Shown: positions 545 through 15,362 of the stretch, piece after piece
Layout: each line of letters begins with the position of its first letter
Position numbering within the stretch: position 1 is the stretch's first letter
Origin: Alphaproteobacteria bacterium
GTDB lineage: Bacteria; Pseudomonadota; Alphaproteobacteria; UBA828
DNA length: 64,000 nucleotides
Assembly: GCA_965220745.1 (NCBI GenBank)
Contig: CBDCQT010000013.1
Span: 832,001 to 896,000 of the forward strand
Reading direction: 5' to 3'
Position numbers and translations under genes: made by a program
Notes under the pieces: generated by a model
What the model saw: the letters and a program-made list of their open reading frames with translations, nothing else
Databases searched by the model: none
Told to the model about the DNA's origin: nothing

Positions 545-1018
545 ATGCCCGCGGCCAGGACACTCTATCTGGCGAACCCTTACGGCTTCTCCGCCCAGCA
601 GAAGGACGGGCCGCTGCAGGCTCTGGTCGCGGCGCTGGAGGTGCTCGGCGCGGAGGTGTGGGAGCCCTTCGCCCGCAACAACCAGATCGACAAGGCCACC
701 GCCGGCTGGGCCTACCGCATCGGCCAGGCCGACCTGCGCGACGTGCGCGATGCCGACGGCATCTTCGCCGTGATCAACGGCTGCCCGCCGGACGAAGGCG
801 TGATGGTGGAGCTCGGCATGGCCATCGCCTGGGAGAAGGCGGTGTTCCTGTTCCGCGACGATTTTCGGCGCTGCACTGACAGCGAGGCCTATCCGCTCAA
901 CCTGATGGTCTTCACCGGCCTGCCCGAGGTCGGCTGGGAGGATTACTGGTACGCCTCGGTGGACGAGATCGCCGACCCCGACAAGGCCCTCGCCCGCTGG
1001 CTTAAAGGCGCCGCTTAG
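545..1018 (+). CDS. Nucleoside 2-deoxyribosyltransferase family protein
   Basis: 157 aa with YLANPYGFS N-terminus, ADLRDVRDAD and the PDEGVMVELGMA catalytic-Glu motif of the NDT/RCL family. Confidence 0.85.
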   Translation: MPAARTLYLANPYGFSAQQKDGPLQALVAALEVLGAEVWEPFARNNQIDKATAGWAYRIGQADLRDVRDADGIFAVINGCPPDEGVMVELGMAIAWEKAVFLFRDDFRRCTDSEAYPLNLMVFTGLPEVGWEDYWYASVDEIADPDKALARWLKGAA

Positions 1019-1039
1019 CCGGCCTGAGCCGGCGCGAGA

Positions 1040-1483
1040 TTACTCGACGCGGGTCCAGGTCTCGGTCTTGCAGACGAACCAGATGCAGCCGCTCATCTTG
1101 ACCGTGTTCGCATCGACGACCTCGAGCTCCGCGTCGTAGGTGTCGCCGTCCCTGGCATTGTAGACCTCGCCGTCTTCCCACTGGCCGCCGCCCTGGTCCT
1201 CCAGGTCAAACAGCACCTGGATGCCCAACATCGGCCGGTCGCGGAGGGATTCGTCGTCGTTCTTGACGTCCCGCCGCGGCTTGCCGTCGTCGCCCAGGGG
1301 ACGCTTGAGCCACACGATCTGGCCGCACAGCTCGTCCTTGTTGCAGGAATAGAGTTTGACGTGCGCATCCTGCCGCTCGTTGAGCCAGATGCCGTAGGGA
1401 TCTGCCGCGAGCGCACCGCCCGAAAAGCCGCCAACGATCAGCGCACCCGCCAGCGCGCCGCATACTAAGCTCCCTGTCCTCAT
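1040..1483 (-). CDS. DUF2147 family secreted protein
   Basis: Signal peptide, then PYGIW, LCGQIVWL, D-x-KN, W-x-x-G-x-VYNARDG-x-TY and GC...CKTETWTR, the DUF2147 pattern. Confidence 0.85.
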   Translation of the reverse strand: MRTGSLVCGALAGALIVGGFSGGALAADPYGIWLNERQDAHVKLYSCNKDELCGQIVWLKRPLGDDGKPRRDVKNDDESLRDRPMLGIQVLFDLEDQGGGQWEDGEVYNARDGDTYDAELEVVDANTVKMSGCIWFVCKTETWTRVE

Positions 1484-2585
1484 GGTCAGCCTCCACCGTC
1501 GCGTGCCGGCCGCTTATCGGTGATTGTCGAATGGCCGGCTTGGGTGACGCTGGCACCCACACGCCCGGACTGTCAAGGCGACCCGAGAGATAACGCGGTC
1601 ATCGTTGCCCCTCGGACGCGGGCGGTTTGGCCCATGTCCGCTTGCCGGCCGCTTCTTGTGGCGCGAGCCAAACTGCAACCTACTTCAATCAGCTGCGGCG
1701 ACATGCCGTTCCAATTGCTTAGGACGCAGTTACTCGCGCTTGATTGAGGCGACGCGCTCCTGACAATCGCCAGGTTGGCCGGTGCAGGATGCGGAGACTC
1801 TCCATGCGCCCGACATCGTCCCCCGTTGCCTCATTACTACCTGCGGGGCAGGGCACGCCGACAAGGGGCGGTTGTGCGGGACGCGCGGAGAGACGCACTG
1901 CCGTTCAGGTGACGACGGCCTTTACCAAAGCGTCGTTCTCCAGCAACCGACCCGGCCTAGGGCGGGACTGCGAGTGTAGCGAATATGGTGAATTCGTAAA
2001 CTTGGCGGACCTTGAGATCGGCGGCCACTCTCTGCACGGCGCTGCTCGCATTCGGCTGAAGTCGGCTCACTAACAGCTGAGATCGTAACCGCAAGTGCGA
2101 CTTGATCATCAGCTCAGAAGATAATGCTTTTATCAATATCCGTTATTTGCTATATCATCTTCAGGCATATGGAGTGTCAGGCAGTGCTGACGGCGGCGAC
2201 ATATATGCGTCCGCGGGGAAATTGTGCTTCGCAAGTCAAAGGGCATTGGCAAGCCGTGGGACGCTCAGCAAGGCAAAGGTCGACCGGTTCACCCACCCCG
2301 GGTCGGTATGTCTCGTTGCAGCGTCGGTGTGCGGCACATATCGACAGAGCAACAGCTCGGTCGTGTGCTTTCACTTTTGGCCCCTCGGCCGTTTCGGCGA
2401 AATTCGGCACTCCAAGCTAGGACATAGAACCTCAACAACTCTCGGAGCACAATATGAACTCTAGGCTTTCATCCCTCCTCCGCAAGACCAAAGTACCTCC
2501 CATTGAGACTCGGCAGCAGCCGTCCGCCAGCGTGTGCCGAGCAATAGATGTGCTCTTGCTTAGAAGAAATAATAGATTTAGGTTG

Positions 2586-3899
2586 ATGCGAGTTTCCTTA
2601 TTTCTATGCATCTTCATCTTTACTCCAATCTCGAGTCACGCGCAACAAGACGTGTTGCTCGTCTCAGGCACTGTTGCTCAAGTAGTAGAGAATTTGAAGG
2701 ATACCATTCACAGCACAATTTCAGCAACAGACGCAGCTTACAGCAATAGCGCGTTTCGCACGCGGCAGCATCTTCAAATACTGCTTGATCAACTTGAAAC
2801 CATTTCGAAGAATGTATCAGAGGCCACGTTTTCTGATTTAACTGATGTGGAGAAAAAGTTCTTTACTGACCTAGCTGTTCAGATCGATTCTCTGAGAACC
2901 CTCGAAAAAGTAACGGCGGATGACGCCGAAAAAATTACGAGGAACATGGCTTCAGCAATCAGCAATCTGCCATTTGCAGATGCTGTACCTATTGTCTTTC
3001 ATTATGATCCACTGTATGTTGTTGGCAAAAGTGAGGATAGTAACTTGGATATTGCTGTTAAGATAACTGGCGCTTTGTTGTCTACCGGAGAACCCTCCCT
3101 AACACTCGATGGTGAGAAGTGCCGAAGAGATGGGAAAATACATACGTCTTTGACATTCGTTTGCATGAACAGGCGGCCCACAGTTGGTGGCTCCGCAGCA
3201 GCGCTAAAGGGAACGCTCAGACTTTACGAAGAGAAAAGCATTTGGGATCATATATTCTTTCGTGACCAGAAGGAGTATACATATGATGTTGTTGTATCGG
3301 TGCTGCCGAGGCAACTAGGAACAGTTTTGACGAATATTACTTTTGAGAAGGAGGTTTTGAGGAAAGAGAAACGCTCACAAGATTTCAGTGAGTGGAATAA
3401 TCACTGTGCTGGCGCTAGAGATTATCTATTCGACTTCAACGCCAGGAATAGTTGGACGATCGACGTTGATTCGATCAATGTCGTTAGGTGCAGCGGAGGA
3501 AGGAAATCCCGCTGTAATGGTCTGCGCCATGTCTCCAAACACTCATTTGCGTATTCGTGCCACCTCGAAAACTACGGAAGATGCGTTGATTTGATTTTTG
3601 GAAAAGCGCTGGATGCCAGAGGTCATTGCGGCGGTAAAGTTGAATGGTACGAAGTAACGACGGAGACTGTTGAGCGGCACGAAGTCCTTACTGAAGAGAA
3701 TGTCTTTTGGGGACAAGATGTGTTAATTCCATTGAAAGAGAGTACTAAGAGCGTGGAAGTGTCATTGAAGAGAGCCGATGGGGAGCAGCGGATTTTCACA
3801 GGAAATGATGAATCGGACTCTTGGGTGAGCGTGATAATCGATTTAGACGGTCGACGGGCGATCATAAGTCCAAAGCATTTGGACATTGCCATGGAATAG
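2586..3899 (+). CDS. Hypothetical secreted protein, Cys-rich C-terminal half, low GC
   Basis: Long ORF (track 2454..3899) in AT-richer DNA. ATG 2586 gives a signal-peptide-like MRVSLFLCIFIFTPISSHA-QQ. The mature part has 8 Cys. Confidence 0.7.
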   Translation: MRVSLFLCIFIFTPISSHAQQDVLLVSGTVAQVVENLKDTIHSTISATDAAYSNSAFRTRQHLQILLDQLETISKNVSEATFSDLTDVEKKFFTDLAVQIDSLRTLEKVTADDAEKITRNMASAISNLPFADAVPIVFHYDPLYVVGKSEDSNLDIAVKITGALLSTGEPSLTLDGEKCRRDGKIHTSLTFVCMNRRPTVGGSAAALKGTLRLYEEKSIWDHIFFRDQKEYTYDVVVSVLPRQLGTVLTNITFEKEVLRKEKRSQDFSEWNNHCAGARDYLFDFNARNSWTIDVDSINVVRCSGGRKSRCNGLRHVSKHSFAYSCHLENYGRCVDLIFGKALDARGHCGGKVEWYEVTTETVERHEVLTEENVFWGQDVLIPLKESTKSVEVSLKRADGEQRIFTGNDESDSWVSVIIDLDGRRAIISPKHLDIAME

Positions 3900-4236
3900 G
3901 GCTGGCACAGATATGGGACCTAAAGTTAGGCACAGGAGAGTGGCAAACCCGCGGCGCGAAGTGGGGAAAGTTGTTTAGTGTGAGGTGATGGCGTTCATCT
4001 GACGCTGAGCTCAGCTAACCATACTTTGTGTTAGCGAGGACTGATAAGGCGGCGACTCGTAGTGCGCCGCGACTTTTGTTGGGGGGGGGCGAGAATGACA
4101 TTCTGCCGTTCGTGCTACAACTTGATGTGGGCGCGGGCGTTGGTGGACGTAGGTGGATAAGCTCCTGGCGAACACTGTCCGTATTGAAGCCATGGTTCTA
4201 AGGTGACGCATTCAGCTCCGTTACAGAAGTAATTAA

Positions 4237-5849
4237 CCCGACCTATTCATGGACTGCCTTGCACTTGAGTTTCGATTGACGGGTCGCGTCGGGGCCTGAC
4301 GCGGTTTGGCGCCGGGATCTGAGGTTGTTCGCTGCTGGGTTGAGGGTTTATGGAGCCTGGGTGATCGGGGCACGCCGCCCCGTCGCTCAGGGGCCTGCTG
4401 CGGCGAGGCGACCTGCGAGCAGGCGGAAGAGAGCGGCGTCGGGACAGGCCGAGGCGAAGTGGATGCGGACGCGGGTGGCCTTCTCGATGACGCGGGCGCC
4501 GATCTTGAGGAGGCGCAGCCTGAGGGTTGCGAACTCTGCGCGGGCGAGGGGCGCGGTGCGGGGGATGGCGTCGCGCAGCGCGAGCATGAGCCAGTAGGCT
4601 GCGGTGTGCAGGACCAGCCTGAGCTGGTTGGCGAGCGGGCTCTGGCAGGAGGTGCGGTCCGAGGCGAGCTGGCCCTTGTGCATCTTGATCAGGTTTTCGG
4701 CCTGGCCGCGGGCGCAGTAGATGTCTTCGTAGAGGTGGCGGGGCTCGCCCTTGAGCGAGGTGACGACATAGCGGGCATCGAAGCCGCGCGTACTCGCCTC
4801 CAGCCGGGCCACGACCCGGCGTTCGCGGTCCCAGGAGCGGGCGGCGTAGGCGAAGGCGGCGAAGCTGCGCATCCTGTCCGCGCCGGCCTCGGCGCGGCGC
4901 ACCCGGACGTCGTCGGCCACCTCGTAGGCGAGAGCGTGGAGCGCGCGATTGCCGGCGAGGCCGAAGATGTAGTCGACCCCGTTCTCCTCGCACCAGGCCA
5001 TGGCTTGCGGGCGGCCATAGTGGCTGTCTCCCCGGAAGACGATCCGGGTGTGCGGCCAGTGGCGGCGGATACGGCCGACCAGATGCTTGATGAGGGTGCG
5101 GACCTCGGGCCCCGACGGCGTCTTGCCCGGACGCAGGAGAACCGCCACCGGCTTGCCGCTCTCCACATGATAGACGTGGACGGGGAGGAAGCAGCGCGTG
5201 TCGTAGTAGGCGTGGAAGAGCGAGAGCTGCTGGTGACCGTGCACCGGATCGCAGGTGTCGTCGATATCGAGGGTGATGGCGGCAGGTGGGGCTGAGAAGG
5301 AGCGGCAGAAGAGATCGACCAGCGCCGCCGTCATGCGCGCCACCTCGATGCGAGAGGGCGCGTTCTCCAGGCGGCTCATGGTGGGCTGGGAACAGAGGTC
5401 ACGGCCGTTCTCCGGCGCCTTCCCTGAGGCCAGCTTGAACAGCGGGTCCGTGCGCAGCGCGTCGCAGTCGTCGGCATCTTCGTAGCCACACGCAATGGCG
5501 AACATGCGGAAGCGCAGCATGGCCGAGAGCGAGTGGACCACCTGCGCCTGCTTGCGCCGGTCGCGGATGCAGCCCGCCAGGGTCTCGGCGAGACCTAAGC
5601 CGCGTTCCGCTTCGCGCAGCAGGACGAGGCCGCCGTCCGACGAGATCAGGCCGCCGTCGAAGGCGGCGCTCACCTTCTTGCGCGCGACGGCTGGCAGATC
5701 GAAGGGGAGAAGGCTATCGTCGGTCATGGCGGGCGTGGCATTTTCGTTACTCGGAGAGGAAGACGCCTCGACAACGAATTCCTATCCGATGGCAACGGCT
5801 TACGCTACGTCCGCCACCCCAAAACCAGACCCGCCACGAATAATCCGGG
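4237..5849 (-). mobile_element. IS1380-family insertion sequence, complete (1613 bp)
   Basis: Imperfect terminal IRs CCCGACCTATTCATGG (4237-4252) and reverse complement of 5834-5849, CCCGGATTATTCGTGG (12/16 match). TTAA direct repeat at 4233-4236 and 5850-5853. Single transposase. Confidence 0.92.
4387..5727 (-). CDS. IS1380-family DDE transposase
   Basis: 446 aa with FDGG-x-ISSDGG, GYEDADD, SQPTMSRLEN, LDIDDT, RGDSHY and YCARGQAENLIK motifs. Confidence 0.95.
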   Translation of the reverse strand: MTDDSLLPFDLPAVARKKVSAAFDGGLISSDGGLVLLREAERGLGLAETLAGCIRDRRKQAQVVHSLSAMLRFRMFAIACGYEDADDCDALRTDPLFKLASGKAPENGRDLCSQPTMSRLENAPSRIEVARMTAALVDLFCRSFSAPPAAITLDIDDTCDPVHGHQQLSLFHAYYDTRCFLPVHVYHVESGKPVAVLLRPGKTPSGPEVRTLIKHLVGRIRRHWPHTRIVFRGDSHYGRPQAMAWCEENGVDYIFGLAGNRALHALAYEVADDVRVRRAEAGADRMRSFAAFAYAARSWDRERRVVARLEASTRGFDARYVVTSLKGEPRHLYEDIYCARGQAENLIKMHKGQLASDRTSCQSPLANQLRLVLHTAAYWLMLALRDAIPRTAPLARAEFATLRLRLLKIGARVIEKATRVRIHFASACPDAALFRLLAGRLAAAGP

Positions 5850-5971
5850 TTAAGTCTGCGACGGCGGGAGCCACGCGTCGTCCTAGGCCTAAAAATCTAA
5901 AAGACGGGCGGGCATGGCGTTTGGCCCGCAAGACGCGGTACCGTGGCCTCGCGATGGTGTCGGAGGGTCCA

Positions 5972-7279
5972 ATGGCGCGGGACGTGCTGACGGCGGATTT
6001 CAAGGCCACGCCTTATTGGTGGGACCTGGCGCCGCGGCCGGATGTCACCGACGAGACGCCGCCCAAGGAGGCCGAGGTGGTGATCGTGGGCGCGGGCAAC
6101 GTGGGGCTTTCCGCCGCGCTCACACTCGCGCGCCGGGGCACGGACGCGGTGGTGCTCGATGCCGAGGCCGCAGGCCATGGCGCCAGCACCCGCAACGCCG
6201 GCTACCTCGGCCGCCAAGTCTGGCACAAATACGGCGACATGGTGCCGAAGCTCGGGCGCGAGCGGGCGGCGGAGGTCTGCCGCGCAGCCATTGCCGCTCA
6301 CGACTACGCGGCCTCCCTGATCGAGCGAGAGCAGATCGCCTGCTTCTACCGCAACACCGGCCGCTTCATCGCGGCGCCCTCCAAGCGCGTGTTCGACGGC
6401 CTCGCGCGCGACCTCGCCATGATGCGGGAGGACGGCGTGCCGGTCGACGCAGAGATGGTCGAGCCCGACGAGGCACCGCCAGCCTACAGAAAAGGACACT
6501 ATCACGGCGGCCAGATCCTGCACGGCAACGGCACGATCCACGCGGGCCTCTACCACGCGGGCCTGCTGGAGCGGGCCGCGCGAGACGGCTCGCGCATCAT
6601 CAGCCACTGCCCGGTGCAGGCCATTGAGCGCTCAGGCAACGGCTTCCGCGTATCCACGCCCCGCGGCACGGTCCGGGCGGGTCACGTGATCGTGGCCACC
6701 AACGGCTACACGCCCAAGGCCGCTCAATGGCTGCGGCGCCGCGTGGTGCCGGTCGACGCCTTCATGATCGCGACCGAGCCCTTGCCCGCGGATCGTGTCG
6801 AGCACATCGCACCCGGCGGCAAGCCGATGGTCGAGCACCGCTACTCCCCTTGCTGGATCAGGCCCAACGAGGACGGCACGCGCATTCTCTTCGGCGGGCT
6901 CAGCGCCGAGCCGCCGGCCGACCTCACGCAGAAGGCGCGCATCCTGCGCGATGCCATGGTGCAAGTCGTCCCCTCACTGGAAGGCGTGAAGATCAGCCAT
7001 TGCTGGACCGGCAAGACCGCCTTCACCTTCGACATGATGCCGCACACCGGCAGCCACGGCGGCGTCGAATACGCCATGGGCTGGTGCGGCTCCGGCGTGC
7101 CCATGGGCACCTACCTTGGCCACAAGACGGCGCTCCGGGTGCTGGGGGACCCCGAGGCTGCGAGCCCTTTCGACGGCCGGCCCTTCCCGACCTGGCCGTT
7201 CTACACCGGCCGCCCCTGGTTCCTGCCGCTCGCGGTGGCGTGGAACAAGCGCAAAGACCGCAAGCTGTTTAGGGGGTAG
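5972..7279 (+). CDS. FAD-dependent oxidoreductase, DAO/PuuB-like family
   Basis: GGAGG at 5962-5966 before ATG 5972. Motifs VIVGAGNVG, GASTRNAG, ATNGY and GWCGSGV. Confidence 0.85.
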   Translation: MARDVLTADFKATPYWWDLAPRPDVTDETPPKEAEVVIVGAGNVGLSAALTLARRGTDAVVLDAEAAGHGASTRNAGYLGRQVWHKYGDMVPKLGRERAAEVCRAAIAAHDYAASLIEREQIACFYRNTGRFIAAPSKRVFDGLARDLAMMREDGVPVDAEMVEPDEAPPAYRKGHYHGGQILHGNGTIHAGLYHAGLLERAARDGSRIISHCPVQAIERSGNGFRVSTPRGTVRAGHVIVATNGYTPKAAQWLRRRVVPVDAFMIATEPLPADRVEHIAPGGKPMVEHRYSPCWIRPNEDGTRILFGGLSAEPPADLTQKARILRDAMVQVVPSLEGVKISHCWTGKTAFTFDMMPHTGSHGGVEYAMGWCGSGVPMGTYLGHKTALRVLGDPEAASPFDGRPFPTWPFYTGRPWFLPLAVAWNKRKDRKLFRG

Positions 7280-7340: not shown

Positions 7341-7970
7341 ATGACCGACGACAGCGCCACGCCTGCGGCGAGAGGGCAGCGCCATCTCCTCCGCCGGCTC
7401 TACGACTGGGCGATCGAGAGCGCCGGCGCGCGCCGCGCCGTCTGGGTGCTGGCGGGCCTCTGCTACCTGCAGAGCCTGTTCCTGCCGGTGCCGCCGGACC
7501 TGCTGCTCATCCCCATGGTGCTGGCGAAGCGCGCCAAGGCGTGGCTCTTCGCCGGCATCGCCACGGTCTCGTCGGTCGGCGGCGGCCTCACCGGCTACCT
7601 GATCGGCTACTTTCTCTATGACTGGCTGGGCGAGCCTCTTCTCGCAATCTCCGGCCACGCCGGCGACCTGGAGACGTTCTACGAGTACCGCGACAAGTGG
7701 GGCGCCTGGTTCGTCGCCGCCGGCGCGCTGACGCCGCTGCCCTACAAGCTGGTGGCCGTAGCCAGCGGCGCCGCCAATCTCAACGTGGGCGCCTTCATCG
7801 CGGCATCGCTCGTCGCCCGCGGCATGCGCTTCTATGTTGAGGCGGCGATACTCTGGTATCTGGGACCCAAGGCCCGGCGGATCCTGGAGCACCGCTACGG
7901 CGCGGCGGCGGCGATCGGGCTCGCCATCCTCACCCTCGGCATCATGGTGCTGATCCCGTTCGTCACCTGA
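7341..7970 (+). CDS. YqaA/DedA family membrane protein
   Basis: RRLYDW, FLPVPPDLLLIPM, ALTPLPYKL and ARGMRFY motifs with hydrophobic helices. Confidence 0.88.
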   Translation: MTDDSATPAARGQRHLLRRLYDWAIESAGARRAVWVLAGLCYLQSLFLPVPPDLLLIPMVLAKRAKAWLFAGIATVSSVGGGLTGYLIGYFLYDWLGEPLLAISGHAGDLETFYEYRDKWGAWFVAAGALTPLPYKLVAVASGAANLNVGAFIAASLVARGMRFYVEAAILWYLGPKARRILEHRYGAAAAIGLAILTLGIMVLIPFVT

Positions 7971-10718: not shown

Positions 10719-11474
10719 ATGCCTCTCTTCCACACCCACATCGTCGTCGACTGGTCGGCGCGGTCGAAGCCGAGTCCCAAGCGGAAGAGCCGGGACTCGA
10801 TCTGGTGGGCCGTTGCTCGTATTGCCCATGGCATCCAGGTGGGGGAGCCGGAATACGTCCGCACCCGCCACGACGCGCTCGACGGGCTCGCCGGTTTGAT
10901 CGCCAGCGAGCTGGACGCTGGCCGGCGGGTGCTGGTGGGCTTCGACTTTCCGTTCGGTTATCCGGCGGGTGTCGCGAAACACTTGGCGGGCGAGGAGTCC
11001 GGCTTGGCCCTTTGGGACTGGCTCGCGGAGCGCATCAAGGACGGTCCCGACAACGCCAACAACCGCTTTGGCGTTGCTGCGTCGATCAACGACACGTGTC
11101 CGGGCCTGGGTCCGTTCTGGGGCCGTCCTGGCACCTGGGATTACCCGACGATTCCGGTGCGGGCATCTGAGCGCACGGAGCAGAAGGCGCACCCGCCGGA
11201 GCGCCGCATCTGCGATGTCCGCGCGAAAGGCGCCAAGACTGTCTGGCAACTGGCCTATTCCGGGTCAGTTGGTTCGCAAATCCTCCTGGGACTGCCAGCG
11301 CTCAAGCGCTTGGTGGAGGACTCGCGCATCCGCGGCCGTGCCGCGATCTGGCCGTTCCAGACCGGCTTGCGGACGCCCGACGCGCCGGCGGTGATCGCCG
11401 AGGTCTATCCCTCGCTTCTCAGGGATGAGGTCCACGCCCTCAGGCGCGATAACGAAATTCCCGACAGCGCCCAA
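10719..11474 (+). pseudogene. 5' part (252 codons) of a conserved hypothetical gene (VVDWSA / GFDFPFGYP / AEVYPSL family), interrupted by the RIT element
   Basis: Reads ...EIPDSAQ up to CCCAA at 11470-11474, then runs into the element's left inverted repeat. Continues in frame at 15186. Confidence 0.85.
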
Positions 11475-11556
11475 TATCGCGACCTCGCAGATATGGCGAG
11501 GACGGGGCGACAGCCCACAGAGCGCCTCCTCTGGCGGCTGGATCGCTCAACATATT
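11470..11556. repeat. Left inverted repeat of the RIT element (87 bp)
   Basis: Reverse complement of 15070-15156. The outer 42 bp (11470-11511 vs 15115-15156) are identical; the inner 45 bp have 7 mismatches. Contains CTCAACATA at 11546-11554. Confidence 0.93.
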
Positions 11557-11601
11557 TCTGGCCTCCTCTCTTGGCTTCGCCAAGAAAAGAGGAGAGCCAT
11601 C

Positions 11602-13158
11602 ATGTCATCAACAACAACGCGCCTGTCCGGGTCTCAGCTCACGCCTGAACCGCATCCCGAGGTATTCGACGAGTATCGCGATCACTTGAGGGGCCTCGGA
11701 TTCACGGAAACGAGCGTCCGGGACCACGGTCGTTTCGTACGGCATTTCCTGATCTGGCTGGACGCAGACGACATTACACTGGATTCGATCGACGGCAATG
11801 TTGTGTCGAGCTTCTTTCGTCACGATTGCGGCTGCGATCTACCCTTCTCCAAGGCAATCCCGTCCGACTCCGGATATTCGGTAGGGCCAGTCACTCGGTT
11901 TGTGCGCTTTCTTGAGGAGACTGGGCGAACCTTCCATCTCGAGGAACTGGACCAAAACCTCGGTCTACTGGATCAGTTTCTACAGCAGTCCCGAGAAAAC
12001 GGATACAGCCACAGGGCACTTAACGTCTTTCGGTCGACAAGCCGCCACTTCATCGTCTGGCTGCACCATTTCCGTATCCCGCTCGGGCAGCTGGACAGTT
12101 CTACTCTGGAGTGCTTTTTCGAACACGACTGCTATTGCGGTCTCCCGGGAATATACACCGGTTGGCGCAAGAAGGAACGTGCCGTCTACCAACCGTCAGG
12201 CCTCACTCGGTTTATCGAGTTCTTGATTGACCGCGGCGAGGTCTCGGACGTCTTTCCATCGCCCACGGTAGCCGACGACGGCCTTGACGAGTTCCGTTCC
12301 TGGCTCCGGCAAAACCGCAACATTGGTGAGAAGACCATACGGCACTACACCGGAACAATAACCTCTCTCCGCCCAGACCTTGCAGAGAATCCCGATCAGT
12401 TTGACGTAACACAGATCCGGAACGCTCTAATGGACAAGCTCGAGAGCGCCTCTATCCGCCAAGCGAAACGAGTAACGTCCACGCTGCGCATGTACCTGCG
12501 GTTTATGGCCTCCACAGGTCGCTGCTCCGCGAGACTGGTGGGTGCTGTTCCGACCGTCGCAGAATGGAGTCAAACCACACTGCCTCGTTACTTGGCGCCT
12601 GAGATAATTGAACGGGCGATAGATTCTTGCGACCGAGCAACAGCGAAGGGGGTGCGCAACCGAGCAATAGTGCTCTTGCTCGCCAGGCTGGGCCTGCGTG
12701 CTGGAGAAGTTTCTCGCTTACGGTTGTGCGATATCGACTGGGAGAACGCACAGCTCCGGATCTGTGGAAAATCGGACAAGGAAACGGCCATTCCACTTCC
12801 GCAGGAGGTTGGAGATGCGTTGCTTGACTATATCACCAATGCCCGACCTCGCGCAGATGAGGAAAGGGTCTTTCTGTCGGTGCTGGCACCGCACCGGCCG
12901 TTCAAGGAATCAAGCGGGATCACCTACGTCGCGCGCGTTGCGCTCGAACGCGCCGGTGTCGATCGCGCCAAGTTCCGGGGCGCACATGTCTTTCGACACA
13001 GCGCGGCTACCAATCTGCTGCGATCCGGCGCATCTCTCCGCTTCGTCGGCTCCTTGCTTCGGCACGAGTCCCTGAAGACCACCGCGCTATACGCAAAAGT
13101 CGATGCGCAGATGCTTCAAGAACTCGCGCAACCATGGATCGGGGGGAATACGAAATGA
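11602..13158 (+). CDS. Tyrosine recombinase (RitA-like, N-terminally extended)
   Basis: AGGAG RBS upstream. Catalytic R-H-R-H-Y set in LGLRAGE, HVFRHS, LLRHES and TALYAK. Confidence 0.92.
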   Translation: MSSTTTRLSGSQLTPEPHPEVFDEYRDHLRGLGFTETSVRDHGRFVRHFLIWLDADDITLDSIDGNVVSSFFRHDCGCDLPFSKAIPSDSGYSVGPVTRFVRFLEETGRTFHLEELDQNLGLLDQFLQQSRENGYSHRALNVFRSTSRHFIVWLHHFRIPLGQLDSSTLECFFEHDCYCGLPGIYTGWRKKERAVYQPSGLTRFIEFLIDRGEVSDVFPSPTVADDGLDEFRSWLRQNRNIGEKTIRHYTGTITSLRPDLAENPDQFDVTQIRNALMDKLESASIRQAKRVTSTLRMYLRFMASTGRCSARLVGAVPTVAEWSQTTLPRYLAPEIIERAIDSCDRATAKGVRNRAIVLLLARLGLRAGEVSRLRLCDIDWENAQLRICGKSDKETAIPLPQEVGDALLDYITNARPRADEERVFLSVLAPHRPFKESSGITYVARVALERAGVDRAKFRGAHVFRHSAATNLLRSGASLRFVGSLLRHESLKTTALYAKVDAQMLQELAQPWIGGNTK

Positions 13159-14072
13159 CCCTCAAGACGCATGTGGAACGCTACATCGAACTCAAACGGC
13201 GCCTTGGCTACAAGTACGACGAAGCGGAAAAGCTGCTGCTCGACTACGCGAACTTTGCAGCGAAACGGAACGAGGACCTCATGCGGGTCGGAACAATGGT
13301 CGATTGGGCGGCCAAAGCGAGTTCACGCAACAGGTCGTGCACCAAGTTGGACGTCGTTCGCATTTTTGCGACGTTCCTACACGGAGAAGACCAACGTCAT
13401 GAGGTTCCGCCGCGCGATGTCTTCGGAAGGAAGACAAAGACAAGACCCCGACCGCATCTGCTGAGTGAAGGTGAGATTCGGCTCGTGATGGACGCCGCGT
13501 TGACACTGCGGCCGTTGGGATCGATCACGCCGCACACTTGGCACTACATGATCGGGCTGATCGCCGTGACGGGTCTACGGGCGTCGGAGGCCCTAAACCT
13601 GCGACTTGCCGATGTTGCTGCGGACAGCCTAACCGTGCAGCAGACAAAGTTCGGGAAGAGCCGGAAGGTTCCGCTGCATGAGGAGACTCGTGCAGCGCTC
13701 GACAACTATCTCGACATGAGAAAACGACTAGGAGGAGTGTACGATCATCTCTTCGTACGGGCGGACGGCAAGCCGCCGACGTATGCCGTCGCGCGCTATG
13801 TGTTCCTCAAACTTCTTCGTCAAACCGGTCTTCGCGCTGGTGGCAACGTGCCGGGCCCGAGCTTGCACAGCTTGCGCCATTCCTTCGCCGTGAGATCGCT
13901 CGAAAACATACCTGATGGCGCCGATCATAGCAGGCACATGCTTGCCCTTTCGGTCTCCCTTGGTCATGCCCAGGTGACCCACACCTACTGGTACATGGAG
14001 GCAACTCCGACCCTGCTCAATCAGATCGCGGAAAAAACAGAAAGTGGATACATAGGGAGGATGAAAAAATGA
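13155..14072 (+). CDS. Tyrosine recombinase (RitB-like)
   Basis: ATGA overlap with the upstream gene. Motifs RRLGYK, TGLRASE, TKFGKSR, HSLRHSFA and LGHAQVTHTYWY. Confidence 0.93.
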   Translation: MTLKTHVERYIELKRRLGYKYDEAEKLLLDYANFAAKRNEDLMRVGTMVDWAAKASSRNRSCTKLDVVRIFATFLHGEDQRHEVPPRDVFGRKTKTRPRPHLLSEGEIRLVMDAALTLRPLGSITPHTWHYMIGLIAVTGLRASEALNLRLADVAADSLTVQQTKFGKSRKVPLHEETRAALDNYLDMRKRLGGVYDHLFVRADGKPPTYAVARYVFLKLLRQTGLRAGGNVPGPSLHSLRHSFAVRSLENIPDGADHSRHMLALSVSLGHAQVTHTYWYMEATPTLLNQIAEKTESGYIGRMKK

Positions 14073-15070
14073 CAGCGCTGGCGACACATCTGAGTGAGTT
14101 CTTGCACCAGCACTTACCGAGAGACAGGCGGGCAAGCAAACATACAGCATCAAGCTATACCGCCACCTTCCGGCTACTAAACAGGTACATTAAGGACCAA
14201 CTCGACGAGGAAGCCTGCTTAGTAGAAATCGAGCAACTTAGCCCACAAACTATCCTGGAGTTCCTTGACTTCCTCGAGCAAGAACGGGGAAGTGGAGTAC
14301 GCACGCGCAATGCAAGGCTCGTCGCTATCAAGTCATTCTTCCGCTACCTGGAATACAAGGCTCCAGCCTGTCTGGAGCAATGCCGGCAGGTTCGTGCAAT
14401 CCCCGAAAAGCGCGCTGACGAGAAGCTGATAGATTGGTTGACCGGTGAAGAAATGGAGGTGCTTCTCGCGGTGCCGGACGTCAATACAATCTCTGGGCTT
14501 CGCGATCGAGCGATGTTGCTACTTGCGTATACGGCTGGCCTGCGCGTCTCTGAGCTCGTGTCGCTAAGGCTCGATGATCTCGATCAGCCTGATCTTGACA
14601 TCGTGCATGTGATGGGAAAGGGACGTCGTGAGCGGATTCTTCCACTCTGGAAGATTACCAAAGAAGCCTTGGCCAGCTGGCTCGACGTCCGAGAGACCGG
14701 TAAAACCGATCACGTTTTTATCAATGCTCGTGGTCGCCCGATAACCCGCCACGGCTTCGCTCATCGCCTGGCGGTACATACCAAGACTGCTCAGCAGCGG
14801 ATGCCGTCGATAGGGAGAAAGAATGTAACTCCGCACTCGCTTCGGCACAGTTGCGCGGTCCTCATACTCGAGGAGACGGACAATATCGGCTTTGTGTCGC
14901 TCTGGCTGGGTCATGCCAGCGCACAGAGCACAGCTATCTATCTGCGAGTGAATCCCAAGAAGGCGTTCGATGGGGTGGCAGGAGACTTGCCGTCAGAGAT
15001 CAGGAAGGGCTCGTTCAAGGGCGCTCGCGATCAACTGGAGCAGATTCTCAAGCACGTACCCTGTCCCTGA
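14069..15070 (+). CDS. Tyrosine recombinase (RitC-like)
   Basis: ATGA overlap. Motifs TRNARLVAIKSFFRY, GLRVSE, GKGRRER, TPHSLRHS and WLGHAS...AIY. Confidence 0.93.
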   Translation: MTALATHLSEFLHQHLPRDRRASKHTASSYTATFRLLNRYIKDQLDEEACLVEIEQLSPQTILEFLDFLEQERGSGVRTRNARLVAIKSFFRYLEYKAPACLEQCRQVRAIPEKRADEKLIDWLTGEEMEVLLAVPDVNTISGLRDRAMLLLAYTAGLRVSELVSLRLDDLDQPDLDIVHVMGKGRRERILPLWKITKEALASWLDVRETGKTDHVFINARGRPITRHGFAHRLAVHTKTAQQRMPSIGRKNVTPHSLRHSCAVLILEETDNIGFVSLWLGHASAQSTAIYLRVNPKKAFDGVAGDLPSEIRKGSFKGARDQLEQILKHVPCP

Positions 15071-15156
15071 ATATGTTGAGCGATTCAGCCTCCGGAGCAG
15101 GCGCTCCGGGGGCCGTCGCCCCGTCCTCGCCATATCTGCGAGGTCGCGATATTGGG
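15070..15156. repeat. Right inverted repeat of the RIT element (87 bp)
   Basis: Pairs with 11470-11556. Contains TATGTTGAG at 15072-15080. Confidence 0.93.
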
Positions 15157-15185
15157 AGCTATGTTGAGCTCAACATAGCTCCCAA
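15152..15185. repeat. Perfect 34-bp palindrome at the right boundary of the RIT element
   Basis: TTGGGAGCTATGTTGAG|CTCAACATAGCTCCCAA, with no spacer; centre between 15168 and 15169. Confidence 0.95.
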
Positions 15186-15362
15186 GTGCGGGTGAACGCG
15201 AAGGCCTTCGCCCGGCTCGATGCCGCCGGCGGGCTCGCGCCCCTCTTCGCCGGCGCTCCCGGCCTCTCTACCGACGAACGCCGCCTCATCCAGACCGAAG
15301 AAGCCTGGATACTCGGCCTCGGCCACGAGGACGCTTTGAAGGGGGCCGTTGACCCGCCATAG
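15186..15362 (+). pseudogene. 3' part (58 codons + stop) of the RIT-interrupted gene
   Basis: Reads VRVNAKAFARLDAAGGLAPLFAGAPGLSTDERRLIQTEEAWILGLGHEDALKGAVDPP*. In frame with 10719-11474 once 11475-15185 is removed. Host-like codon usage resumes here. Confidence 0.85.

Follow-up and report, generated by a model that had tools for sequence, protein, structure and literature searches.

A one-sided terminal palindrome in a recombinase-in-trio element and a candidate double-core site for its integration

Why should an element bounded by long inverted repeats (IRs) carry a perfect palindrome at one end only, and which form of the element could leave such an end behind? The question is raised by a stretch of 64,000 nucleotides (hereafter the window; G000:C13:832001-896000) from an alphaproteobacterial genome (UBA828, assembly GCA_965220745.1, contig CBDCQT010000013.1), in which three tyrosine recombinase genes lie between IRs at 11470-15185. 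This three-gene unit is a recombinase-in-trio (RIT) element, an ordinary member of a known but little-studied family. We compared it with its other copies, with uninterrupted target genes and with RIT loci of other lineages. Our analysis suggested, with a probability of roughly 0.7, that the element passes through a 3,711-bp circle bearing two mirrored core sites, either of which may recombine with a pseudo-core in the target, so that the unused core is left at one end and the body comes to lie in either orientation.

The element, its ends and its empty sites

The genes ritA, ritB and ritC are adjacent and co-oriented (Table 1), and consecutive genes overlap by ATGA (13155-13158 and 14069-14072); short overlaps of this type are a RIT criterion in the available portions of PMC3414803 and PMC2864759. 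All three proteins match the phage-integrase catalytic domain PF00589. The R..HxxR..H..Y pattern, the established motif definition of the tyrosine recombinase family, was seen by eye in each of the three translations. The best-scoring models for RitA, RitB and RitC were XerC/XerD, all below curated cutoffs, and in RitA an extra N-terminal region of ~230 aa precedes the Xer-like body; the consulted part of PMC8138268 (Smyshlyaev et al.) likewise groups RitA/B/C among Xer-like simple recombinases. The protein lengths (Table 1) are compatible with the family order of a long RitA followed by RitB and RitC, and RitB aligns to the RitB positions in annotated trios. Compared with RitB from plasmids that bear RITs, among them pHG1, pNGR234a, EbN1 plasmid 2 and D. 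shibae pDSHI03, its identity is 31-49%. A Tn554-like transposon (TnpA and TnpB with a non-recombinase TnpC, no terminal IRs) was rejected because all three genes encode recombinases and long IRs are present. Identity with the GInt/SE elements was rejected as well, since only three genes, and no fourth, lie between the IRs.

The repeat search returned inverted arms of 91 nt at 11466-11556 and 15070-15160 (91% complementary). The 87-bp IRs given in a preliminary description of the locus are the portion of these arms within the CCCAA/TTGGG termini, and the outer 42 nt are identical between the left (IRL) and right (IRR) repeat. A spacer-less perfect palindrome of 17+17 nt is present at the right end only, and CCCAA occurs at both junctions (11470-11474 and 15181-15185). 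Direct reading and the repeat search bear out the 87-bp repeats, their identical outer 42 bp, the right-only 34-bp palindrome and the repeated CCCAA of that description. Its count of four for the 9-mer TATGTTGAG holds within the element (11546, 15072, 15160 and 15169), and a fifth exact occurrence, which may be chance, is located at 7833-7841, 3.6 kb upstream of the element; five occurrences in the 64-kb window compare with 0.07 expected by chance, and none of 100 shuffles reached five.

Table 1. Features of the window copy (copy A) and of its interrupted host gene; binding elements and core sites are putative.
Feature	Position	Strand	Details
Host gene, 5' part	10719..11469	+	Below-cutoff similarity to the unknown-domain part of a MobB fusion protein (NF011066)
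Hybrid crossover hexamer, left junction	11468..11473	.	CGCCCA (reverse complement TGGGCG); outer two bases target-type
IRL	11470..11556	.	Terminal 10-bp element ATATCGCGAC at 11474-11483; motif copy TATGGCGAG at ~11492-11500; inner 9-mer at 11546-11554
ritA (518 aa)	11602..13158	+	PF00589 match, E 2.5e-28; R..HxxR..H..Y present
ritB (305-312 aa)	13155..14072 (alternative open ATG at 13134)	+	PF00589 match, E 1e-18; R..HxxR..H..Y present
ritC (333 aa)	14069..15070	+	PF00589 match, E 9.3e-32; R..HxxR..H..Y present
IRR	15070..15156	.	Inner 9-mer at 15072-15080
Intact core site	15143..15168	.	L = GTCGCGATAT (15143-15152); O = TGGGAG (15153-15158); R = CTATGTTGAG (15159-15168)
34-bp perfect palindrome	15152..15185	.	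Two abutting R elements and the inner bases of both hexamers
Hybrid site	15169..15184	.	Mirrored R CTCAACATAG (15169-15178) and hexamer CTCCCA (15179-15184), joined to target
Host gene, 3' part	15186..15362	+	In frame with the 5' part after removal of the 3,711-bp insert

Three copies of the element, 100% identical to one another, were found in the genome: copy A is that of the window, copy B lies on contig C5, and copy C is on the same contig as A, ~73 kb upstream and in the opposite orientation (G000:C13:766700-770416). Homologous recombination between copies C and A could invert the segment between them. In silico removal of 3,711 bp restores a single open frame in the host gene of copy A. 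The same target is uninterrupted in 11 of 11 orthologous loci of same-genus genomes, none of which contains the palindrome. In all 11, exactly 5 bp lie between the flanks (nine loci have CCCAG, and one each has CCCAA and CGCAA), from which the insert size follows, as the preliminary description had proposed.

Copies B and C interrupt two paralogues of one ATPase gene (phrog_1297 match) at the same codons, ...PR[T/S]|WE|F.... This gene adjoins a type IV coupling-protein gene in one homologous locus and has up to six matches per genome in the genus. All 24 homologous ATPase loci that were displayed and inspected are uninterrupted at the insertion point, where each has a single TGGGAG or TGGGAA and no palindrome. 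Because the empty sites of A and of B and C lack them, the 24 bases between the core repeats are neither target sequence nor artefact; judged by these sites, the palindrome is part of the element and not of the target. The three copies have the same end structure, which recurs in another three public assemblies and in contigs from runs made independently (records covering 15129-15184), and the assembly fold-back that the earlier account had wished to exclude is therefore ruled out.

The palindrome and core anatomy across lineages

In copies A and B the palindrome lies beyond IRR, at the ritC end; in copy C, whose IRR meets the target directly, it comes before IRL, at the ritA end. A second lineage showed the same switch: genome G205 (RitB 50% identical) has two 100%-identical copies with a 32-bp perfect palindrome, which is on the left in locus L073 and on the right in L074. 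With respect to the target, the palindrome stands next to the 5' part of the ATPase gene (...PR[T/S]|WE...) in B, in C, in a copy from genome G035 described below, and in L070 and L071, two 94% identical copies in OY729512.2, while the body points either way; B and C have the palindrome on the same target side and their bodies opposed. Contig ends from runs X2 and X19 share the junction of ATPase gene and palindrome (loose ends at 15153). In L069, 98.6% identical to the window element, the target is that of copy B, but the 3' part of the gene adjoins IRR and not IRL, the other end being cut by a contig edge. As shown by these aligned insertions, the palindrome keeps a fixed side relative to the target while the body takes both orientations.

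We then surveyed RIT loci more widely. RitB relatives were present in 10 of 401 sampled genomes of the class, the window genome included, and RitB homologues (tblastn, E <= 1e-30) in 359 of 72,556 plasmid records. Nine loci were fetched from class genomes and 12 from plasmid records, and a RitB-based search for related loci gave five, of which L072, cut by a contig end, was left out. Among the 29 RIT loci tallied, 17 have a one-sided extension at an IR terminus and none has a palindrome at both ends; two (L087 and L088) have it after ritC with the ritA side destroyed, two (L075 and L079) have it at neither end, and eight were not assessable. The preliminary description had asked whether homologs are always one-sided with a CCCAA flank: one-sidedness holds in the 17 loci, and no locus is two-sided, but L075 and L079 have no palindrome, and the hexamer differs among lineages. 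Its main inference survives this test. The trios of L082, L083, L087, L088, L090 and L091 are truncated, disrupted by insertion sequences (IS) or nested. In EbN1 plasmid 2 (L090, NC_006824.1), pHG1 (L091, NZ_CP039289.1) and pNGR234a (L092, NC_000914.2), pieces of other recombinase genes border the trios; these RITs are nested in or beside other RITs, matching the description of Van Houdt et al.

One-sided palindromes or near-palindromes abutting an IR terminus are found on the right in L076/L077 (with shared flanks, counted as one insertion), in L081, and in L089 (Acidiphilium pACRY03, NC_009469.1). They are found on the left in L078, L080 (arms separated by 10 bases), L085 (Sphingopyxis pSfKp5.2) and L093 (Phaeobacter pP92_f, NZ_CP010616.1; one mismatch), and a weaker one-sided palindrome is present in L092. 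IRs measured 82-109 bp in five other RIT lineages. L081 is a fourth, distant RIT of the window genome (G000:C12 ~217670-221160, locus positions 2671-6160), with RitB 32% identical and IRs of 105 bp (86%). Its right-end extension reads TTATGTGGGC and then CATGACATAA, flanked by GGGCTC and GAGCCC, and GAGCCC occurs again at the IRL terminus; on this reading of its ends, L081 is a second lineage of the same architecture within the window genome.

A common layout, L(10)-O(6)-R(10)|R', with each element oriented from IR towards palindrome axis, fits 13 elements of 8 lineages, whose junctions lie within the hexamer or at its margin. A resemblance to T[T/A]ATnnnGAG is shared by R and the reverse complement of L, and the IRs contain additional copies of this motif. 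Simple tyrosine-recombinase core sites classically have two binding elements in inverted orientation on either side of a 6-bp centre. The 10-6-10 arrangement looks like a core site of the Xer/dif type, two of which would stand mirrored and back to back, with binding and cleavage positions that are putative. On this reading, the palindrome would be no more than two R elements in contact.

The hexamer is the candidate region of exchange. The switch from element to target falls within TGGGAG at both junctions in B and C and within TTGGG in A. A 6-bp hexamer between 10-bp elements describes the crossover region better than the 5-bp CCCAA core first proposed. Copy A has TGGGAG beside the palindrome and the target-type TGGGCG at the distal junction. 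Similarly, L070 has TGGGAG in the intact core and beside the palindrome, and TGGGAA solely at the distal junction. In L071, which sits in a TGGGAA target, all three hexamers are TGGGAA, giving a symmetric change in the palindrome; this pattern may reflect an exchange of bases with targets over successive cycles. Two other explanations of the repeated bases were rejected: a 5-bp target-site duplication, because the repeat sequence is constant and equal to the IR terminus, and an overlap region spanning the whole palindrome, because the empty sites share only 4-6 bp.

The targets themselves have features in common. Two RIT lineages interrupt ArdC-like genes in or beside the HExxH metallopeptidase motif, HEL|GHATGH in L089 and ...HEAT|...WTGH in L093, and L085 splits a strawberry-notch helicase gene. 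Insertions of rit genes in radC are reported for two species in the available part of PMC2864759 (Janssen et al.). It seems that RIT lineages target conserved motifs in the genes that conjugative elements carry (ATPase, ArdC, strawberry notch and radC). In addition, the 10 target bases beside the hybrid hexamer often show a YCNGGG-like pattern across lineages and target genes, for example TGTCCTGGGA, GCTCCGGGAG, TTCTCGGGAT, CTCTCGGGGC and GACCTGGGAC, which may be a conserved target half-site or merely GC-rich background.

One further copy deserves mention. Another genome of the genus (G035; also OZ243972.1) has a copy 99% identical to the window element (L068, ~730-3340; L025, G035:C1, 1532688-1534188) that was later hit by two IS insertions. 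An IS91-family element (Y2_Tnp and Zn_Tnp_IS91 domains) lies inside the intact core, between CCCA and CAATATCG, and the 3' end of ritC is the site of a second insertion, ~1.5 kb long and bounded by terminal inverted repeats. This copy is probably immobile.

A double-core integration model and its alternatives

In the free form that we propose, two L ends would be joined through O, R, mirrored R, mirrored O and mirrored L, that is, through two spacer-less 10-6-10 cores placed back to back. At integration, one core would recombine conservatively, inside its hexamer, with a pseudo-core of the target (TGGGAG in the conserved ATPase gene of conjugative elements, TTGGGCG for the window copy). The used core would be split into two hybrid sites at the junctions, and the unused core would remain whole at one end, accompanied by the R|R' palindrome. 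An integrated copy would then hold three sites: a hybrid (target half, hexamer, R) beside the palindrome, the intact core (mirrored R, hexamer, L) inside it, and a far hybrid (L, hexamer, target half). Since both cores are identical, as are their surroundings over 54 bp, either core would be usable, and the body could land either way with the palindrome on the same target side. If the two hybrids recombined, the circle would be released and the gene made whole again. The intact core and the distal hybrid site are mutually inverted, and their recombination would flip the body in place.

The preliminary description had already proposed a symmetric junction with two equivalent cores and insertion in both orientations. 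This idea is strengthened by the element-borne palindrome, by its change of side in two lineages and by bodies lying both ways at the same target. We infer the circle, together with the cleavage positions, the core used by each copy and the assignment of proteins to binding elements.

Several observations weigh against this model. First, the evidence for side-switching comes from two lineages. Second, there are the loci without the expected ends. Of the two without a palindrome, L075 (G407:C2:598100-607100) has two IR-side flanks, each joined to an IR terminus and each an inverted paralogue of the other (85-96% identity across ~0.3-1.1 kb); this fits recombination between two oppositely oriented copies, and a secondary rearrangement between copies may explain the locus. 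L079 (G179:C2:71200-80100) belongs to the L078 lineage and has 104-bp IRs whose termini are shorter by the hexamer, and its lack of a palindrome may likewise be put down to secondary rearrangement. In L084 and L086, whose trios are intact, blastn (word 8, E <= 0.01) found no flanking IR.

Third, the hexamers of element and target share little in L073 and L085 and nothing in L074 and L089. The junctions of L089 are blunt, without duplication, and its joined flanks restore ...HELGHATGH... of the ArdC-like gene. In these four loci, either mismatched overlaps are tolerated or the crossover has been placed wrongly. Integrases of the Tn916/CTnDOT type do tolerate heteroduplex (mismatched) overlaps. 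The claim that a 5-bp match to the target is a general requirement has to be given up in view of L074 and L089, where the hexamers share little or nothing with the target. Fourth, no circle or excision product was seen in the assembled contigs: contigs of four runs contained joints at 11266>15181, 11432>15297, 12257>15204 and 15220>15294 and none at the predicted 15185>11475 or 11474>15186. Each of these joints came from one contig with 24-40 bases on its shorter side, and we drew no conclusion from them; contigs built from 31-letter words cannot reveal the circle, because every 31-mer of the predicted junction also occurs in integrated copies (unique span >34 bases).

Finally, a choice of core at integration cannot be told apart, by its products, from the use of one core alone followed by later inversion of the body in place, through homologous recombination of the IRs or through recombination of the intact core with the distal hybrid site. 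On that account the arrangement with the palindrome by ritA would arise only after integration. The 42 identical outer bases of the IRs could support such an inversion, its products would be the same in sequence as those of alternative core use, and rearrangements that involve RIT copies do occur, as is seen in L075. Nonetheless, we consider this account unlikely. The cores and their 54-bp surroundings are identical, so the DNA offers the enzymes no preference, and no chimeric IRs occur among the three 100%-identical copies. Moreover, it leaves the anatomy of the site unchanged and departs from the double-core model in timing alone.

Less probable still is a linear or hairpin-ended intermediate, whose hairpins would form and be resolved as by a telomere resolvase; the palindrome would then be their scar or substrate and not a second core. 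The portion of PMC5737581 (Nielsen et al.) consulted reports that RITs are enriched in the mobilome as exonuclease-protected DNA with no circle junction detected, and proposes hairpin molecules. The 34-mer also folds well as a single strand (-17.8 kcal/mol, z = -6.9), as any perfect palindrome must. However, the switch from element to target lies 10-16 bp off the palindrome axis, and the palindrome sequence is constant whatever the flanks. In L080 and L081, 8-10 non-palindromic bases between the arms, or asymmetric inner ends, fit two binding elements better. A palindromic junction of ~200 bp would itself probably defeat paired-end mapping. The cruciform or hairpin put forward in the preliminary description therefore has nothing in its favor beyond trivial folding, and two abutting, putative recombinase-binding elements offer the simpler account. 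As for a pre-existing hotspot in the target or an assembly artefact, to which nothing but one-sidedness in a single copy had pointed, it is already refuted by the absence of the palindrome from 11/11 and 24/24 empty sites, by its identity at three unrelated flanks and by its presence in other assemblies and in independent-run contigs.

The double-core model can be carried further, to a proposal that we regard as tentative and on balance doubtful. The circle would bear a mirrored pair of dif-like cores, and the three recombinases would divide the work, one reading L, one reading R and one reading the degenerate half-sites of targets. The exchange of a hexamer in each cycle would let the cores drift towards a favourite target, and conserved motifs in genes of conjugative elements would serve as targets that offer a route between hosts.

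Relation to known systems and significance

The window element agrees with the RIT elements described by Van Houdt et al. (2009/2012) and Ricker et al. (2013) in its three adjacent tyrosine recombinase genes with ATGA overlaps, a long RitA, flanking IRs and several identical copies, as well as in its insertion into genes of genomic islands and conjugative elements. Its IRs of 87-91 bp compare with 28-34 bp for the RITs treated in the available parts of PMC3414803 and PMC10214605. This gap is probably under-reporting rather than a difference, given the IR lengths found in five other lineages, and nothing sets the window element apart from the RIT family. The accessible text of PMC3414803 mentions IRs with an 'overlapping palindromic sequence', 'sequence variation at the ends' and a 'palindromic sequence flanking ... 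ritC', and judges these end features not to match the usual core and arm sites. The double-core model fits these remarks on variable ends and a palindrome, which were left unexplained there. The model itself was not found in the portions of the RIT literature searched, which excluded the main descriptive paper, Ricker et al. 2013.

Among other tyrosine recombinase systems, XerC/XerD acting at dif offers the nearest parallel. As in dif, the centre of the proposed core, 6 bp long, would lie between binding elements of ~10 bp in inverted orientation, and the Rit proteins score best against Xer models, below cutoff. The layout of dif is 11-6-11. Unlike XerC/XerD and dif, RIT elements encode three paralogous enzymes instead of two, and would have two spacer-less cores back to back and a degenerate pseudo-core partner in many genes. 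Tn916/CTnDOT and Tn554 are alike in that tyrosine recombinases move the element through a circle, which for RIT is our own inference, and some RIT lineages parallel the Tn916/CTnDOT type in having junctions without overlap homology or target duplication. However, these elements are without long terminal IRs or a mirrored double core, and Tn554 prefers one particular site and takes 6 bp of donor flank with it. Tn554 encodes three products, according to the part of PMC10214605 consulted. The same source states that GInt/SE elements use several tyrosine-recombinase-like genes and that circularisation by attL x attR has been shown for them. GInt/SE elements differ in their four conserved genes including a non-recombinase (GinC/Tfp, GinD/Srap), in cargo of tens of kb, and in having no long IRs or palindrome.

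Where earlier remarks on the ends and the palindrome were vague, these comparisons yield a defined site model, which predicts a double-core circle junction, a roughly equal ratio of orientations and a hexamer that is exchanged with the target. It also offers a reason why mobilome mapping by short reads missed the circle. If the tentative division of labour were true, it would settle an old puzzle, namely that four strand cleavages should need three enzymes. In the consulted portion of PMC10214605, a 2023 study of strand-biased circularizing integrative elements, RIT transposition is said never to have been achieved in laboratory experiments, and target specificity figures there among the untested properties. 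The mirrored, self-contained 52-bp recombination sites may interest builders of recombinase tools. RIT elements are widespread, and the site model would make their unresolved mechanism of movement directly testable.

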